A stretch of DNA of 64,000 bases from Candidatus Heimdallarchaeota archaeon. Its GTDB lineage: Archaea > Asgardarchaeota > Heimdallarchaeia > Heimdallarchaeales > Heimdallarchaeaceae. The translations under genes were made by a program, and so were the position numbers. The stretch is from NCBI GenBank assembly GCA_019057815.1, contig JAHLWR010000011.1:32001-96000 (forward strand), written 5' to 3'. Shown here piece after piece: positions 8,361 through 17,395 of the stretch; position 1 is the first letter of the stretch; every line of letters starts with the position of its first letter. Under the pieces are notes generated by a model. The model had not been told where the DNA came from. It saw only the letters and a program-made list of their open reading frames with translations, and made no database searches.

Positions 8361-8436
8361 TGGTAGTCCCCAGGAGATTCGAACTCCTGTCCCGGGATTC
8401 AGAGTCCCAGATGTTTGACCACTACACTAGGGGACT
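8361..8436 (-). tRNA. tRNA-Gln(CTG)
   Basis: AGTCCCC...TGGGA CTCTGAA TCCCG...AGGAG TTCGAAT CTCCT GGGGACT A CCA forms a complete cloverleaf; A1-U72; encoded CCA. Confidence 0.95.
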
Positions 8437-8518: not shown

Positions 8519-9865
8519 ACATAGCAGAAATCCCCTAACTTTAGGTGGGGGATGAATGCGATAGAAACATCTATTCATCTATTACTCGTCTTTTTATAGT
8601 GAAAAAAGTACTAAGGAAATAAGGAAATGAACTGATGTTAACCTACAAAGTGCAACTGTACCCGAACAAACAGCAACAAGCAAAACTTGGTGAACAGTTG
8701 GATATTTGTAGAAAACTCTATAATAGACTACTAGAAGAGTGTAAGAAAGAACAAGAGAAGGGAGAAAAACTCACACAAATCAAAACTCAATCGTTTATAG
8801 TAGGGCTAAAAAATACTTCTATGCCCGAATTGAAAGGAGTACATTCTAAAGTTTTACAGATGGTCAACTACACTCTATGGACAAATATCAAGAGTCTATC
8901 CCAATTAAAAAAGAATGGGCATAAAATCGGTCACTTACGTTTTAAAGGAAAAGGATGGTACAAGACTATCAACTATAACCAGAGCGGTTTCAAGATAGAC
9001 GAAAACAAAAACAAACTAACCTTTTCTAAGATTGGGACTATCAATTGTAGAGGACTAAATAATAGAGTAAGAGAAAACAAAATTAAAGGGATAATACTCA
9101 AACGCACTCAAACGGGTAGATGGTTCGCGAATATACAAATAGAAAACTCTCCAGTAGTTCTTCCTAAAACCTCTAAAAGCGTAGGGATAGATGTAGGGAT
9201 AAATTCTTACGCAGTGGATTCGGATGGACGAGAGATAGAGAATCCTAAAAACATAGAAAGACAATTAAAGAAACTTAAAAATAAGCACAAATCTCTTAGT
9301 CGTAAAAAGCAAGGTTCAAAGAATTGGTTAAAAGCCAAATATCAGTTGGCTAAACTCTACACTAAAGCTGTTGACCAGCGTAAAGACTTCTTACATAAAG
9401 TCTCAAACTTTTATGTAGATAATTATGATATTATCTGTGTGGAAAACTTGAATATTAAAGGACTCACACAGAAAGGTAATAAGAAACACAAGCGGTCACG
9501 CACACTCCATCGTAACATTCTCGACGCTTCATGGGGAATATTCTTCAACTATTTATCTTATAAAGCTGTAAACGCTGATAAAGAACTAGTTAAAGTTCCA
9601 CCAAGAGGTACTACTCAAGAATGTTCCAGATGTGGAGAGATAGTTCCTAAGACATTAAATGATAGGACACACTCTTGTCCTTATTGCGACTTAGAGATAG
9701 ACCGCGACTATAACGCTTCAATAAACATTTTGAAGAGGGGTAAGGGATATGCCTCTTTACTTGTGGAGAACAGACCTCTAATCACTATCACTGCTTCTGC
9801 TTTCGTTAGTGGTCAAGTCTTTTCAATGAATCAAGAAACGCCTACCTTTAGGAAGGTGTAGTTCA
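8519..9865 (+). mobile_element. IS200/IS605-family element carrying tnpB only (IS1341-like)
   Basis: Subterminal hairpins ATCCCCTAACTTTAGGTGGGGGAT (8530-8553) and ACGCCTACCTTTAGGAAGGTGT (9838-9859), the latter followed by AGTTCA. No tnpA. The exact left end is uncertain; TTAAT at 8514-8518 is a candidate target motif. Confidence 0.8.
8635..9861 (+). CDS. tnpB: RNA-guided endonuclease TnpB
   Basis: N-terminal HTH (YKVQLYPNKQQ); RuvC residues GIDVG, VENL and DRDYNAS; CSRCG...CPYC zinc finger. Confidence 0.95.
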   Translation: MLTYKVQLYPNKQQQAKLGEQLDICRKLYNRLLEECKKEQEKGEKLTQIKTQSFIVGLKNTSMPELKGVHSKVLQMVNYTLWTNIKSLSQLKKNGHKIGHLRFKGKGWYKTINYNQSGFKIDENKNKLTFSKIGTINCRGLNNRVRENKIKGIILKRTQTGRWFANIQIENSPVVLPKTSKSVGIDVGINSYAVDSDGREIENPKNIERQLKKLKNKHKSLSRKKQGSKNWLKAKYQLAKLYTKAVDQRKDFLHKVSNFYVDNYDIICVENLNIKGLTQKGNKKHKRSRTLHRNILDASWGIFFNYLSYKAVNADKELVKVPPRGTTQECSRCGEIVPKTLNDRTHSCPYCDLEIDRDYNASINILKRGKGYASLLVENRPLITITASAFVSGQVFSMNQETPTFRKV

Positions 9866-10242: not shown

Positions 10243-10617
10243 ATGAGTGCTGAGAAATATAAACTGAAGTTTATCTTACCTAATATAGGGGAAGCAAGAG
10301 GAGAGTTAATACGAATTAAGGGACCACATCTCACTGAGAAGATCAATAGAGCTTTACCCATCACCTCTAGAGGTTTGAAGCGAGATGACATGTTTATAAT
10401 TCCCGTAAAAGTAATTTATGTTATTGAACGACCTACATATACCGGTAGGAGGGGAGACATATTATTCTCCTCAACTTCCAAAGCTATTATAATTCTATTG
10501 AAAGAAAAACGTTTTGACTTAAAAGTAGCAAATTTAGGTTCTATCACAAAAAACATTAAAATCTTTGATCAGCCTGCTGTCTCTTCTGGTGTAAGAATTG
10601 AGGTAATTAACGAATAG
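10243..10617 (+). CDS. Cyclophilin-like fold protein (DUF369/TM1367-like)
   Basis: GELIRIKGPHLTEKINRALP...RRGDILF...VANLGSI pattern. Confidence 0.6.
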   Translation: MSAEKYKLKFILPNIGEARGELIRIKGPHLTEKINRALPITSRGLKRDDMFIIPVKVIYVIERPTYTGRRGDILFSSTSKAIIILLKEKRFDLKVANLGSITKNIKIFDQPAVSSGVRIEVINE

Positions 10618-10716
10618 TAAATTTTCTAGCTATTACATTTGATGATAAATAAAGCTTACAAAAACTCTTATAAACAGTTCTCATGTCATTAAATCAATAA
10701 CATGTAACGAGGAATC

Positions 10717-11067
10717 TTGATGAGTATTCGTGAAACCATAGGAGAAACTTTCAGTGCAATCAAAAAGGAATACAAGAAAGTCGACTCTGTAGACAAAACT
10801 TTAGATGTTATCTCTTTAACAGGGTTAGTTTTATTCTTCATATCCCTTTTCTCAGTATTTATTGGAAAAGATTTCAATTCTCTAAATATTCCTTTAATTC
10901 TCTATCCTTTAGGAATAGGAGGATTAGCTACTGCCTTGAGGATGAAGAAAAGAGATGATCCTGAAGATATTAGTTCTTTATTCAAAGAATGGTTAATAAT
11001 CACCAGTACATTTACAGCCATGATAATAGTTATATTAATTATTGCTTTAGTTCTTTATTTGAGCTAA
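10717..11067 (+). CDS. Hypothetical membrane protein (about 3 TM)
   Basis: Hydrophobic segments; co-oriented with neighbours. Confidence 0.65.
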   Translation: MMSIRETIGETFSAIKKEYKKVDSVDKTLDVISLTGLVLFFISLFSVFIGKDFNSLNIPLILYPLGIGGLATALRMKKRDDPEDISSLFKEWLIITSTFTAMIIVILIIALVLYLS

Positions 11068-11122
11068 AATCTTTTCTTTGTACCGTAGCAATTTTTTTAT
11101 ATTTCGAAACTAATAGGTAAAG

Positions 11123-12532
11123 ATGATGACCCAAGAAACACATAAAGTTTACACGCGTGTACTTAAATTCGGCTTAAAACTCGGCTTAAAAAGATTTATT
11201 GAAACAATAGCATTTGCTGTAACGATTTTCTCTATAACTTTAATTTATTTTTATTTCATAATATCCTCAGAACTATCACCAATTGGGAAATATGTCTTCT
11301 TTCCTCTCGGAGTGTTTACTGAGATAGTTTTGATATTGAGCTATCTGGATAATCATTACCAGATTAATGTTTTTGGAGAAAACGCTAATAAGCTCTTTTC
11401 GGGAATAGCTATTGCAGCTCTTTCAATAATAATAATGTACTCAACAATTCCAGGTCTATATGAAATCAAAGTAATTGAAGAAGGAAATATATCTTTGATT
11501 GTTCTATTTTTCCTATTAACCACTATTGAAACAGGATATTTTATATTCTCTATTCCGAGAGCAAATTTATCTGAAATGACATTCGGTCTTGAGCATCAAT
11601 TCAAGACGTTAGAAGAGAACCTTCAAAATAAAAAATTGAAAGAACTTCCATTAACAAAAGCAATCACTAAAGGGATAGAAGCGCTGAAAATCAGGATAAC
11701 GGAAGAAGGTCTATGGGGAGAGCTAGATTCTCTATATGAAACTGCAATAGTTTTAGAGCTCTTTCATTCGTTTGGTTATAAAGAAGATATGGAGTGGACT
11801 ATTCCTACAGCAGAAGGTAAAAAACCAATTAAATTGATGAAAGTAATTGACACTCTAAAAACGATAATTGAAACTTCAGAGACAATGGAGCTTTCTTACG
11901 AACAATACAAAATAATTCATTCTATAAGTCTTTATGATACTTCGGTTCTTTTTCCATATAAGCAACAAATTGATGAATTTCACGAAACAATCACAGAGGA
12001 AACAGAATGGGATTTTATAACAAAGTTGAATAGATTTACAGCATATTTACGTTCAAAAACTACTCCCTTGCACTTAATTATGTGTTATGTTGGTGATGAG
12101 ATCGGTAACATTAAGTTACTTGATAAATTAGCAAATATGTTTGCATCTAGTATAGAAATTGTCATCAAAAGAGGATATGCAAGATTTTCAACATCGCAAA
12201 CAGGTAAAACTCCTATTGAGATGTTTTCAAGATTGATGTTAGCATTATATGATATTAGAAGACCTCCTTTAAAAAGGATGCAATTTGTTCAAGCAGTAAG
12301 TGGACAACAGTTCATAGAAGGTTCTTGGGCCGGAAATATAGGAACAACGGGATATGTTATTAAAGCGTTAATACCAGGAGAAAATCCTGATTCATTAGTT
12401 CTTAAGAAAGCAGCTTTATATCTTACAGCTGTTCAAGATAAACAAGGTCTTTGGGGATCAAATATCGAAGAAACAGTGATAGCACTAAACGCCTTAAAAT
12501 CTTTGAAGGAATTAGCTGAACAAGAAGAATAA
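11123..12532 (+). CDS. Membrane protein with C-terminal prenyltransferase/squalene-oxidase-repeat (alpha/alpha barrel) domain
   Basis: Four N-terminal TMs. QW-like repeats EEGLWG, QFIEGSWAGNIGTTGYVIKAL and AALYLTAVQDKQGLWGSNIEETVIALNAL. Confidence 0.6.
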   Translation: MMTQETHKVYTRVLKFGLKLGLKRFIETIAFAVTIFSITLIYFYFIISSELSPIGKYVFFPLGVFTEIVLILSYLDNHYQINVFGENANKLFSGIAIAALSIIIMYSTIPGLYEIKVIEEGNISLIVLFFLLTTIETGYFIFSIPRANLSEMTFGLEHQFKTLEENLQNKKLKELPLTKAITKGIEALKIRITEEGLWGELDSLYETAIVLELFHSFGYKEDMEWTIPTAEGKKPIKLMKVIDTLKTIIETSETMELSYEQYKIIHSISLYDTSVLFPYKQQIDEFHETITEETEWDFITKLNRFTAYLRSKTTPLHLIMCYVGDEIGNIKLLDKLANMFASSIEIVIKRGYARFSTSQTGKTPIEMFSRLMLALYDIRRPPLKRMQFVQAVSGQQFIEGSWAGNIGTTGYVIKALIPGENPDSLVLKKAALYLTAVQDKQGLWGSNIEETVIALNALKSLKELAEQEE

Positions 12533-12565: not shown

Positions 12566-12640
12566 TGGTAGTCCCGTGGAGACTCGAACTCCAGTCGCCG
12601 GGGTCAAAGCCCAGTATGATTGCCGCTACACTACGGGACT
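12566..12640 (-). tRNA. tRNA-Gln(TTG)
   Basis: AGTCCCG...CTGGG CTTTGAC CCCGG...TGGAG TTCGAGT CTCCA CGGGACT A CCA. Confidence 0.95.
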
Positions 12641-12750
12641 ATTGTTGTCGTCAAATTTCTTTGACAACAAATCATTTTACACTTTGGTTTTAAATTTTTC
12701 TTTTAAACTAAGAAGAAATCTATATTGTAACTAGTGATTACAGCACAGCA

Positions 12751-14712
12751 CTAGTATGCAATTTCATCCCGATTTATGACAGATTTTTTTACCCACGAAT
12801 CACGAAGTGTAATTATTCTATTGAAGACCAAGTTATCTTTACTTGAATCTACAATATCTATACAGAAATAGCCTAATCTTTCAAACTGGTAACGTGAACC
12901 GATATCTGCATTTTGTAGGAATGGTTCAACATAAGCACTGACAATTTCGAGGGAGTGAGGGTTCAAATAATCTGTAAAATCTTCTCCTTCTTCCAGTTCC
13001 ATTGGGTTCTCTTTTATGAAAAGACGATCAGACAATCTTACTTCAGCTTTAATTGCATCGATTGCAGAAATCCAATGGATTGTGCCTTTAATTTTTCGCT
13101 CAACAACAGATGAATCACCATTAGTTTCTGAATCGTAGCTACAATGGATTTCAGTAATTTCCCTTGTTTCATCATCCCTTAGAACTTTTTCACATCTGAT
13201 AATATATGCGTATTTTAGGCGAACATCTTTACCGAGAGTAAGTCTATAATAATCTTCTGGAGGATCTTCCATGAAGTCTTCTTGCTCGATGTAAAGTACT
13301 TTAGAGAATTTGATTTTTCTTGTTCCCATCTCCTTATTGCGCGGGTGATTAAGAATAGTAATTTCCTCAAATTCATCCTTTGGATAGTTAGTTATAACGA
13401 CCTTTAAAGGTCGTAGAACACTCATTACACGAGGGCATCTTTCGTCCAAATCTTCTCTAACGCAATTATCAAAAATTGATTGATCAATAATAGCTTCGCG
13501 CTTTGATACACCGATTTCTTTATAGAATTTTCGAATCGCATCTGCAGTAATTCCTCTTCTTCGTATACCCACTATTGTTGGCATCCGAAGATCATCCCAA
13601 CCATTGACATATCCTTCCTTTACTAATCGGATAATATTTCGTTTTCCTAGAACAGTGTAAGTAAAGTTTGATCTTGCAAATTCTATTTGTTGGGGCTTAA
13701 AGATGGGGTTCCCATTTTCATCATCTAATTGTTCCAAAAACCAATCATATATTTGACGATGGATTTCAAATTCCATTGTACAAATTGAATGCGTTATACC
13801 TTCTATTGAGTCTTCTAGACCATGAGCCCAATCATACATTGGATAAATACACCATTTATCACCTGTATTATGATGTTTTTTGTGAAGAATGCGATAAATA
13901 AGAGGATCGCGCATTAAAAGATTGGGAGATGCCATATCAATCTTTGCGCGTAAAACCTTTGAACCATCGGAAAATTCACCGTTTTTCATTCTTTCGAAAA
14001 GGTCTAGATTTTCCTCTATTGTCCTATCTCTAAAAGGGCTTTCTTTTCCTGGTTCGGTTATAGTTCCTCGATACTCTCTGATTTCGTCTACACTTAAGTC
14101 ATCAACATATGCTTTTCCTTTTTCTACTAGTTGTACAGCATATTCATAGAATTGATCAAAATAATCTGATGCATATAATAATCGATCCTCCCAATCTACA
14201 CCTAACCATTTTGCATCTTCAATCTGAGCTTTAACATATTCCACATCTTCAGTGGTAGGATTAGTATCATCAAAACGCCAGTTGAACTTGCCGTTATATT
14301 CTACTGCAATTCCATAGTTCAGAAGAATTGATTTCGCATGACCAATGTGCAAGTATCCGTTAGGTTCAGGAGGAAAACGGGTATGAACACGACCATTATA
14401 CTTGTTTGTCTTCATATCTTCATTGATAATTGCGCGTATAAAATCAGTACCTTCACCCAATTCACTTTCTTGCTTATCTTCTTTTAGCAATTCAGGATAT
14501 TTTTCTCGTGCAATTTGTTGAATTTCAGTGGTTGTTAGTGAACTAATTAAATTAATCGTCTCAACAACTGTCTCTTTTACAGTTTTTGCTTCTTTACGTA
14601 ATTCTGGATGAGCTGACATTATCATTCCCACTACTGGACCAACTTTAGCTGAACCATGGTCTAGAGTGTTCTGAACAACAAATTTTTCGCATATCCTTTC
14701 TACTGAAGTCAT
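12751..14712 (-). CDS. glnS: Glutamine--tRNA ligase with an archaeal GluRS-like N-terminal helical domain
   Basis: [38 protein letters not shown] (GlnRS-type Cys where GluRS has HxxRG), [15 protein letters not shown] and QFERLGYF. Confidence 0.92.
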
Positions 14713-15522: not shown

Positions 15523-16263
15523 ATGAATGATGAACACGAAACAAAAGGTCCAGGGAGACCCCGAAAATATGCAACATCAGCAGAGCGAAAACGAGCTTAT
15601 AGGGAGAGAAAAAAGGAGAGACTCGCTCAAATGCAAAAAGGTGTTGCAAGACTAGAGAAGAAGGTGAGTAAATTGGGTATAACTAAAGAAAGATCTGATA
15701 AGTTGGATTCTCTACTAAATGAAATCGAGACACCAATGGCTAAATTTGCACCTTCTGAAATCGCAGAAATGGAAAATGATGAACTCTTGGAATTGCGAGA
15801 CATCTTGAGACACTGGTTGCAGGATCATAGAGGGCTTGGAGGAATAGTGACTCAATTGAGCAATGCTATAATTCCAAGAGCGTATGCTTCCTTTGATCAA
15901 TTGGAGTTATTTGGTCCAAGACAAGAAGAAGAAGAAGGAGAGGTAAAATACATTCCCTCGATGGTCGAAACAGTGATAGACAAAAAACGTCAAAATGCAA
16001 GAGCATATTACTTTTCATCATCAAGTAACAGATATAGCAGTAGTAACCTTGCAGAACTATTCGAACAAATCACCTTGCTCTATCTTGTTGAAGCTGAGAT
16101 CGCTAAGAGACGAAGAGACAAAGTTGAAGATTTTGCTATCGTGCAGCTAGAGACTAGAATCAAGGAACTAGAATCACTGCTAGAGGATAGTGAAGAAGCT
16201 AAAACTGAACCTTACTATAGAGGGGGTGAATCAGGTGGAAAAAGAGGTGATATCAATGAGTAA
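15523..16263 (+). CDS. AT-hook + bZIP-like coiled-coil protein (paralogue 1)
   Basis: GPGRPRK, then AERKRAYRERKKERLAQMQKGVARLEKKV. C-terminal LLYLVEAEIAKRRR...QLETRIKELE. Confidence 0.7.
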   Translation: MNDEHETKGPGRPRKYATSAERKRAYRERKKERLAQMQKGVARLEKKVSKLGITKERSDKLDSLLNEIETPMAKFAPSEIAEMENDELLELRDILRHWLQDHRGLGGIVTQLSNAIIPRAYASFDQLELFGPRQEEEEGEVKYIPSMVETVIDKKRQNARAYYFSSSSNRYSSSNLAELFEQITLLYLVEAEIAKRRRDKVEDFAIVQLETRIKELESLLEDSEEAKTEPYYRGGESGGKRGDINE

Positions 16264-17395
16264 GAAGAATTTAGAGTCAAAAGAAAATAAACTGAGAGGT
16301 AAACCAATCGTTCTTGAATTTGGTTCAGCATTTACAAGAATAGGATTTTCGAGTGAAGATGCACCTCGAATAGTTAAACCAACGATTGTAGGTTATAATG
16401 ATGTAGTATCAAAGAATGACAATCTTACATCGATTTTAACCGAAACTAACAAACAAGCGTTTGTTGGCATTGCAGCTATTGAGAAAAGGAAGGAACTCGA
16501 AATAGTATATCCAATTAAAAACAGAAAAATAAATGACATGCAAGCTCTTAAAGTTATGATCCAATACGCAATTGAGAGAGACTTATCAATTACACCCGAT
16601 TTGCATGCAGCAATCGTTATTCTTCCATATCCAATCAGTGAAGAGGAAAAAGAAGAAATTACTAAAATGCTTTTAGACGATCTAAATTTTCCTGGTGTAT
16701 ATGTTTCATCTAGTGAAAATATGCCCCTATACAGTATAGGAAGAACAACTGGTATAGTTGTTGATTCAGGATACGAAAAAACAGATATTATACCTATTTT
16801 AGATGGTAAAATCATCACTAAAGCTGTTAAAAGCTTAAACATAGGTGGATATCACGTTACAAACAAGCTTAGAGAATCTCTGAGAGAGCAAGATTTCACA
16901 TATACAGATGAGGAAGACAAATTCTTTGGAGCTGCAAGAAACATCAAAGAAAATCTATGCTATGTAGCTTTAAATGCGGATAAGGAAATAGAACTAGCTT
17001 CTAAAGTTTCAGGGATGAGAAAAATACACAAGCTTCCAAATGGGGAAAAATATATTGTTGAACTCCAACGTTTTTTGGCGACTGAGATCTTGTTTCAACC
17101 AGAGATGATTGATTTGAAAGAAAAACCATTGCATGAACAAATTATCGATTCGATTCAGTCTTGTGATACTAAAAACCAATCATCGTTGTGGTCTAATATT
17201 GTTATTGCAGGTGGAAATTCTATATTACCAGGATATCATGCTAGATTAAATCACGAACTAAAATCACTAGCACCTGAAAACGAAGATGTAAGAATATATT
17301 CTACACCATCAAACACTAGCTTTTCTTCATGGATAGGCGCAAGTATCCTTAGTTCTAGAATGGAGTTTAGTAAACATTGGATTACAAAAAAGTAA
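16256..17395 (+). CDS. Actin-family protein (Asgard actin-related protein)
   Basis: PIVLEFGSAFTRIGFSSEDAPR, YPI, GRTTGIVVDSG, RNIKENLCYVA, LPNG, EILFQP, NIVIAGGNS and WIGASILSS. ATG at 16256 follows GAGGTGA and overlaps the upstream gene. Confidence 0.93.
   Translation: MSKKNLESKENKLRGKPIVLEFGSAFTRIGFSSEDAPRIVKPTIVGYNDVVSKNDNLTSILTETNKQAFVGIAAIEKRKELEIVYPIKNRKINDMQALKVMIQYAIERDLSITPDLHAAIVILPYPISEEEKEEITKMLLDDLNFPGVYVSSSENMPLYSIGRTTGIVVDSGYEKTDIIPILDGKIITKAVKSLNIGGYHVTNKLRESLREQDFTYTDEEDKFFGAARNIKENLCYVALNADKEIELASKVSGMRKIHKLPNGEKYIVELQRFLATEILFQPEMIDLKEKPLHEQIIDSIQSCDTKNQSSLWSNIVIAGGNSILPGYHARLNHELKSLAPENEDVRIYSTPSNTSFSSWIGASILSSRMEFSKHWITKK

Follow-up and report, generated by a model that had tools for sequence, protein, structure and literature searches.

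How does an archaeon come to carry, beside its own tRNA-Gln genes, an enzyme predicted to charge them directly with glutamine? The question is raised by a gene at positions 12751..14712 (minus strand) of a 64,000-nucleotide stretch of DNA, hereafter the window, from a Candidatus Heimdallarchaeota archaeon (assembly GCA_019057815.1, contig JAHLWR010000011.1, positions 32,001 to 96,000 of the forward strand). To our knowledge, textbooks hold that no archaeon has a glutaminyl-tRNA synthetase (GlnRS). A 2022 review describes all known archaea as lacking GlnRS, and explains this absence by an incompatibility of archaeal tRNA-Gln with foreign GlnRS (PMC9499178); a 2024 preprint mentions a GlnRS located next to cox genes in Hodarchaeales and Kariarchaeaceae (10.1101/2024.07.04.601786). 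An earlier reading of the window (the original prediction) had proposed that the gene encodes a true GlnRS whose first ~80 residues resemble the N-terminal domain (N-domain) of archaeal glutamyl-tRNA synthetase (GluRS). From our sequence analysis, we consider it probable that the enzyme combines an imported bacterial-type GlnRS core with an archaeal GluRS N-domain, and that it charges the host tRNA-Gln directly. We found no paper in the searchable literature that describes the N-terminal chimera; the Heimdall GlnRS is mentioned there in passing only.

The synthetase and its two parts

The gene is an unbroken open reading frame (ORF) of 653 codons followed by a stop codon, as seen in both the ORF list and the translation. 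Pfam places the class I Glu/Gln catalytic domain (tRNA-synt_1c) at residues 109-423 and detects both beta-barrel anticodon-binding domains. The protein matches TIGR00440, the NCBIfam glnS equivalog model, from end to end (model positions 1-524 of 524) with 702.6 bits, compared to a cut-off of 425.8, while the whole protein does not pass the archaeal GluRS models TIGR00463 (382.6 compared to 401.75 bits) and NF003169 (367.8 compared to 516 bits). Similarly, in a sequence search of the PDB, it scored 667 bits with E. coli GlnRS, 399 with human GlnRS and 371 with yeast GlnRS, compared to 206 bits with the GluRS of M. thermautotrophicus. Identity to E. coli GlnS is 53%, with residues 89-642 aligned to E. 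coli residues 9-551 with small gaps only (BLASTP).

The core (residues 89-653; 12754..14448, minus strand), identified as bacterial-type by the E. coli alignment, the PDB scores and the trees described below, starts at a DFIRxII helix that corresponds to the N-terminus of bacterial GlnRS (TNFIRQII in E. coli). In the alignment with E. coli GlnS, PQQIEF(AR) and the other class I signature motifs, HIGH included, are kept, with VLGKR replacing VMSKR (KMSKS-type), and the equivalents of E. coli R30, Y211, C229 and Q255, which we take to be glutamine-pocket residues, are conserved. Moreover, the segments that form the acceptor 'unpairing loop' and the G36-recognition loop align with E. coli GlnRS without gaps; both loops are found in GlnRS and missing from archaeal GluRS (Nureki et al. 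2010, PMC2978374). Judged by these sequence comparisons, the gene is confirmed to encode a true GlnRS-type enzyme in an archaeon, as the original prediction held. NCBI annotates the Heimdall proteins as 'glutamine--tRNA ligase/YqeY domain fusion protein', a name derived from NF011291, the model of the Deinococcus-type GlnRS/YqeY fusion. The match to NF011291 covers model positions 9-560 of 769 only, and the protein ends 11 residues past it, such that the C-terminal YqeY part of the model (560-769) is unmatched; thus, the database name is misleading.

What precedes the core is a four-helix N-domain of the archaeal GluRS N-terminal ('YqeY') type (residues 1-75; 14488..14712, minus strand). Residues 1-105 alone matched NF003169 (E 1.2e-14, model positions 4-85), TIGR00463 (E 1.5e-8) and residues 2-83 of M. 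thermautotrophicus GluRS (3AII; E 1.4e-6), and hhalign aligned 20 Heimdall GlnRS N-termini with 30 archaeal GluRS N-termini over 78 columns (probability 99.9%, E 1.4e-32). These profile comparisons confirm the homology of residues 1-75 to the archaeal GluRS N-domain, in agreement with the resemblance originally noted for the first ~80 residues. An exhaustive profile search of 1.84 billion representatives with the N-domain found 503 proteins, and each full-length match that was checked proved to be an archaeal-type GluRS, its domain lying at the catalytic domain or immediately ahead of it; a word-indexed search with residues 1-95 found 12 close relatives only. One metagenomic protein (P0190, 793 aa), an archaeal-type GluRS, has a zinc ribbon at its N-terminus and some 200 additional residues before its YqeY-type N-domain (match at 221-285).

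The AlphaFold2 model has helices at residues 3-19, 24-34, 36-57 and 61-71, with a predicted local distance difference test score (pLDDT) above 90 for residues 1-75, followed by a disordered acidic stretch at residues 76-91 (pLDDT below 50 for 80-91). The acidic linker (residues 76-88; 14449..14487, minus strand), which we delimited by pLDDT and by its composition in relatives and which is predicted to be disordered, is variable in length among these relatives and rich in the residues E, D and K. In archaeal GluRS, the N-terminus has been labelled a YqeY domain (Nureki et al. 2010, PMC2978374), and in the M. thermautotrophicus structure 3AII this YQEY domain (residues 1-85) is structurally disordered (PMC2978374), which explains why Foldseek found no match for the Heimdall N-domain in the PDB. 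A VIA-align scan of 48,161 chains gave noise-level Z scores of 5-6.5 in the top 50, with many unrelated helical matches at equal Z; weak matches included residues 119-182 of the human GlnRS N-terminal domain (Z 6.1), residues 119-184 of the yeast GlnRS N-domain (Z 5.0) and residues 97-148 of B. subtilis YqeY (1NG6; Z 5.0, root-mean-square deviation 1.8 over 47 residues).

If the two parts were joined by a later fusion, they should differ in their distance to GluRS, and this is what we observed in separate phylogenies of the kind that the original prediction had proposed. For the N-domain, the mean distance between GlnRS and GluRS in LG+G4 trees was 1.72, compared to 1.67 among GluRS (ratio 1.03), and 43% of GluRS pairs exceeded the mean GlnRS-GluRS distance. 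For the core, the corresponding distances were 3.02 and 2.35 (ratio 1.29), and 4% of GluRS pairs exceeded the mean. Raw identities of the N-domain, which are saturated, were 30% between GlnRS and GluRS and 31% among GluRS. In the N-domain tree, the GlnRS copies sit without a long stem within the cloud of GluRS N-domains. Thus, the N-domain behaves like any other in the GluRS N-domain family and the core does not, which matches the prediction of a later fusion. The junction, moreover, falls exactly at the N-terminus of bacterial GlnRS. Taken as a pattern of sequence relationships, the contrast between N-domain and core supports the view that this GlnRS is a chimera.

GlnRS scored above the cut-off in 41 of 400 Asgard genomes, all of the class Heimdallarchaeia and belonging to three of 33 families (f1, f5 and f7). 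The ORFs of f1, the family of the window (about 620-690 aa), and of f7 (about 653-664 aa) include the N-domain, while the GlnRS of f5 (578-602 aa) is too short for it. Only GluRS was found in three sister families of the same order and in every other Asgard class. With these 41 genomes, the NCBI annotation and the one preprint mention, the statement that GlnRS is generally absent from archaea has to be qualified.

The genome was assembled from a metagenome, with contamination estimated at 2%, and an apparent fusion might have been produced by chimerism of the contig, by bacterial contamination of the bin or by an over-extended start codon. We give such an artefact practically no credence. About 30 genomes from two families encode the fused form, and two of these genomes are single contigs; across this set the N-domain is conserved, and it folds confidently in the model. 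The contig neighbours of the gene include actin, RIO kinase and an archaeal peptidase A24, and GC content is even across the region. Since these neighbours are archaeal or Asgard-typical and GC content does not shift, the contig is archaeal throughout. Finally, independent metagenome studies yielded contigs with copies of 90-97% identity that cross the junction between N-domain and core, which excludes an assembly artefact and, with the neighbours and GC content, disposes of the chimeric contig that the original prediction had considered.

Where the core and the N-domain came from

We placed the core in trees that included the Heimdall sequences, bacterial GlnRS from more than 20 phyla (56-64% identical), E. 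coli GlnRS, eukaryotic GlnRS (Acanthamoeba, Anaeramoeba, Histomonas, land plants and others) and giant viruses, with Asgard GluRS as the outgroup. One tree was built with FastTree (108 rows) and one with IQ-TREE under LG+C20 with posterior mean site frequencies (PMSF; 82 rows), and support is given as the Shimodaira-Hasegawa-like approximate likelihood ratio test (SH-aLRT). FastTree and IQ-TREE agree that eukaryotic GlnRS form one clade and that all other GlnRS form a bacterial-type clade (SH-aLRT 98). Inside the bacterial-type clade, the N-domain form of f1 and f7 is one clade (100), and the N-domain-less form of f5 is a second clade (100), grouped with a Thermodesulfobacteriota sequence (99). 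The E. coli-type, Opitutales and gut-type GlnRS branch before the node that holds both Heimdall forms (88). Contigs of up to ~500 kb that are likely from giant viruses (L158-L182 and L183-L187) encode two kinds of GlnRS: a eukaryote-type enzyme with an N-terminal domain (L183), which clusters with those of Klosneuvirus and Fadolivirus, and a short form starting MNFIEE, which branches within the bacterial-type clade.

We think it likely that the core was imported from bacteria, and perhaps twice, although neither the direction nor the number of events is proven by the data. A narrow distribution in archaea and a broad one in bacteria favours import. In the history that we infer, the most likely source of residues 89-653 is a horizontal transfer from bacteria into a lineage of Heimdallarchaeia, and an N-domain of archaeal GluRS type (residues 1-75) would have been joined to the imported core via the flexible acidic linker.

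Several of our results weigh against this reading, or against parts of it. The bacterial sample consisted of the 80 loci most similar to the query, and is biased by having been picked in this way. Approximately unbiased (AU) tests (LG+F+G4, 52 taxa, reasonably optimised constrained trees) did not reject a placement of the N-domain clade outside, and sister to, the remaining bacterial-type GlnRS (P = 0.57, difference in log-likelihood 3.7), the union of all Heimdall sequences in one clade (P = 0.21) or a grouping of the N-domain clade with eukaryotes (P = 0.16), nor did they reject monophyly of bacteria alone (P = 0.12). Since no alternative is rejected, the direction of transfer rests on a moderate branch support (SH-aLRT 88) and on distribution. 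A first AU run on fast-search trees had seemed to reject two alternatives, a result overturned by the better-optimised trees. With respect to the N-domain, the tree is unresolved and names no GluRS donor, and identities are saturated near 30%; the best GluRS N-domain profile score (75 bits) came from f5, the family whose own GlnRS lacks the domain, while the GluRS N-domains of the host families themselves scored 36-58 bits only. It is likely that a native domain was recruited, as originally proposed, but these scores do not single out its donor. Furthermore, neither YqeY (PF09424) nor GatB (PF02637) matched any of 30 GluRS N-domains in Pfam at E 10, and hhalign of the GlnRS and GluRS N-domains against eukaryotic GlnRS N-terminal regions gave a probability below 1%; a YqeY-like fold is plausible from weak structural scores and the label given in a paper. 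The sole hint of expression is a 285-nucleotide contig from one metatranscriptome library, which encodes residues 79-174 of a 96% identical relative and spans the junction, too little to claim expression. On the functional side, GatDE is retained, as described below, and GlnRS may supply no more than a share of the Gln-tRNA.

The AU results bear most directly on a different history, in which the N-domain GlnRS arose in the original duplication of archaeal GluRS and never lost the domain, such that bacterial and possibly eukaryotic GlnRS derive from an archaeal GlnRS. Both the basal position and the grouping with eukaryotes are left standing by these tests, identity to GluRS is about 29-31% for the N-domain as well as for the core, the N-terminal domain of eukaryotic GlnRS has a weak match to the fold model at residues 119-184, and Heimdallarchaeia are reported in the preprint to be closest to eukaryotes (10.1101/2024.07.04.601786). 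We nevertheless find this history improbable. Three tree analyses nest the N-domain clade within bacterial-type GlnRS, with the E. coli-type, Opitutales and gut-type enzymes branching earlier; the core is far closer to E. coli than to human GlnRS by PDB score and has the bacterial NFIRxII N-terminal helix. Moreover, the GlnRS N-domains fall within GluRS N-domain diversity without a long stem, unlike the core, and have no profile-level similarity to the eukaryotic N-terminal domain by hhalign. Finally, retention in only three of 33 Asgard families would require many losses. The fullest form of this idea is that the N-domain form is the oldest surviving GlnRS, born in Heimdall archaea by duplication of a YqeY-bearing GluRS, that bacteria later took its core but not the N-domain, and that the eukaryotic N-terminal domain is an elaborated descendant; we regard it as very improbable.

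Import of a bacterial-type core thus remains our preferred reading, and the Heimdall GlnRS is probably not an ancestor of eukaryotic GlnRS. The original prediction had left room for a bearing on the origin of GlnRS; the best trees argue against it by placing the core in the bacterial-type clade, away from eukaryotes, although the AU tests do not formally exclude it. Its other suggestion, convergence on a eukaryote-like architecture, is reasonable given the YqeY label (PMC2978374) and the weak fold matches, but finds no counterpart in a profile match to the eukaryotic domain.

The tRNA-Gln genes and the indirect route

Clustering of the GlnRS gene with both tRNA-Gln genes, as originally reported, holds in the window. 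The gene for tRNA-Gln(UUG) (12566..12640, minus strand) lies exactly 110 bp downstream of the GlnRS stop codon on the same strand, and that for tRNA-Gln(CUG) (8361..8436, minus strand) lies 4.1 kb further; these are the only two tRNA-Gln genes that ARAGORN, with introns allowed, found in the 3.74-Mb, 95%-complete assembly. Both tRNAs have A1:U72, A73 and A37, and both genes encode CCA. A1:U72 and A73 are hallmarks of archaeal tRNA-Gln, compared to U1:A72 and G73 in E. coli (PMC9499178). Thus, both tRNAs are native, and not co-transferred bacterial genes. tRNA-Gln genes flank GlnRS in all three GlnRS-bearing families: the UUG gene is ~80-110 bp downstream of GlnRS in f1, an intron-bearing UUG gene is ~100 bp downstream in f7, and a tandem CUG and UUG pair is convergent with GlnRS in f5. 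Across the class, tRNA BLAST was too insensitive and we used a covariance model instead.

We considered A37 as a co-adaptation of the tRNA to GlnRS. In the GlnRS-bearing Heimdallarchaeia families, the GlnRS-linked isoacceptor has A37, while about 21 of 23 tRNA-Gln genes in four Heimdallarchaeia families that lack GlnRS have G37 (manual count), and several f1 relatives have G37 on the CUG isoacceptor and A37 on the GlnRS-adjacent UUG isoacceptor. We rejected co-adaptation because the GlnRS-free family f20, from another Asgard class, has A37 throughout, and A37 is therefore at most permissive. Likewise, G73 is present in the N-domain-less family f5, yet also in GlnRS-free genomes. Bacterial-type GlnRS make use of A37, and the weak A1:U72 pair together with A37 is compatible with what these enzymes use. 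The identity elements of E. coli GlnRS are summarised elsewhere (PMC9976931).

The genes of the indirect route, which the original prediction had singled out for a check, are all present in the genome. An archaeal GluRS is kept (contig C26; L001:1474-3216) with 427.2 bits, above the cut-off, and shares 29% identity with the GlnRS along its entire length, the N-domain among it; gatD and gatE are adjacent (contig C9:5407-8650), and 80 of 83 genomes of the class retain GatE. With the gatE model, GatE of family f1 scores ~375-410 bits, compared to 540-650 in most other families, and the GluRS of the window's genome is on a very long branch in the IQ-TREE tree. Both may be signs that, in the presence of GlnRS, constraint on the indirect pathway has been relaxed or has shifted. 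The f7 genomes have a second, divergent GatE-like gene (~430 bits) beside the canonical one (~640 bits), for example at G082:C4:4177-6132 and G085:C427:9324-11279.

Given that GluRS, GatD and GatE are intact, the non-discriminating GluRS and GatDE could supply most Gln-tRNA, with GlnRS being real but serving one isoacceptor, certain conditions or a role outside translation. The f1 relatives that differ at position 37 between the CUG and the GlnRS-adjacent UUG isoacceptor would fit such a restricted role. We think that so minor a part is rather unlikely, since the catalytic and tRNA-recognition residues of GlnRS are conserved, many genomes keep the enzyme at 65-95% identity, with linkage to tRNA-Gln in three families, and the low f1 GatE scores and the long GluRS branch fit relaxed or shifted constraint on the old route and not on GlnRS. 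We therefore favor direct charging, in which the GlnRS is predicted to attach glutamine to the archaeon's own tRNA-Gln. Its gene is kept beside the tRNA-Gln genes, with the older GluRS/GatDE route retained alongside. The YqeY domain at the C-terminus of Deinococcus GlnRS and the N-terminal domain of the eukaryotic enzyme suggest, by analogy, that the most probable role of the appended N-domain is to add unspecific affinity for tRNA. Because archaeal tRNA-Gln has A73 where the bacterial one has G73, such extra affinity could matter for a foreign enzyme.

Other features of the neighbourhood are as follows. The 4.1 kb between the two tRNA-Gln genes hold an IS605-family OrfB/TnpB gene (8635-9861, plus strand; helix-turn-helix, OrfB_IS605 and Cas12f1-like TNB), 200 bp from tRNA-Gln(CUG), and three unannotated ORFs (10243-12532); in some relatives, the two tRNA-Gln genes are just ~1 kb apart. 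In several relatives (L022:1168-1242, L028:1132-1206 and L032:1165-1239), a tRNA-like gene called by ARAGORN, with a two-base anticodon '(ta)' that it could not determine, lies between GlnRS/tRNA-Gln(UUG) and tRNA-Gln(CUG); this tRNA may be degenerate or contain an intron. In the window, at 12641-12700 (minus strand) and directly upstream of tRNA-Gln(UUG), is an imperfect 11-bp inverted repeat (ttgttgtcaaa / tttgacgacaa), preceded by an A/T-rich TTTAAAA stretch; this repeat between GlnRS and the tRNA gene could be a promoter or processing element. The actin homologue (Pfam Actin, E 7e-78; 16190-17395, plus strand) belongs to a tight three-gene group that includes 15523-16263 (plus strand), and its two partner ORFs had no Pfam match.

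Implications and comparison with known systems

An imported-looking GlnRS is established here in the archaeal class reported nearest to eukaryotes, beside archaeal tRNA-Gln and with the old route present. This opens to direct testing the questions of how a synthetase of foreign origin is adapted to the tRNA of its host, given at least three known cases of GlnRS with an appended helper domain, how a cell accommodates two routes to the same aminoacyl-tRNA, and how the transition from an indirect to a direct pathway, which eukaryotes also underwent, takes place. As a naturally diverged synthetase/tRNA pair, GlnRS and its tRNA may also serve genetic-code engineering.

The Heimdall enzyme resembles bacterial GlnRS (E. 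coli GlnS, PDB 1GTS, 1QTQ and 1O0B) in sequence, domain order, pocket residues, both loops and the NFIRxII start. It differs in its archaeal host, in the extra 75-residue N-terminal helical domain and acidic linker, and in its presumed substrate, a tRNA with A1:U72 and A73 in place of the U1:A72 and G73 of E. coli tRNA-Gln (PMC9499178). With the non-discriminating GluRS of archaea (M. thermautotrophicus, 3AII) it shares the overall fold and the N-domain ahead of the Rossmann fold (PMC2978374), while its core is only ~30% identical, falls below the GluRS cut-offs and has the loops and pocket residues specific to GlnRS.

Eukaryotic GlnRS (yeast 3TL4 and 4H3S, human 4YE6) also has an N-terminal helper domain, which is GatB/YqeY-like and to which the Heimdall N-domain gives weak fold matches (Z 5.0-6.1), and a linker. 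In contrast, the eukaryotic N-terminal domain consists of two subdomains that together span about 200 residues, without profile-level similarity to the Heimdall domain, and the Heimdall core belongs to the other, bacterial-type clade. The GlnRS of Deinococcus radiodurans (PDB 2HZ7) is alike in joining a bacterial-type core to an appended YqeY-type helper domain; its YqeY domain is C-terminal, while the Heimdall domain is N-terminal and of archaeal GluRS origin. In D. radiodurans, the YqeY helper domain reportedly improves tRNA-Gln binding. Set beside these systems, the Heimdall enzyme is a GlnRS with an appended helper domain, most likely imported and refitted with a domain of its host.

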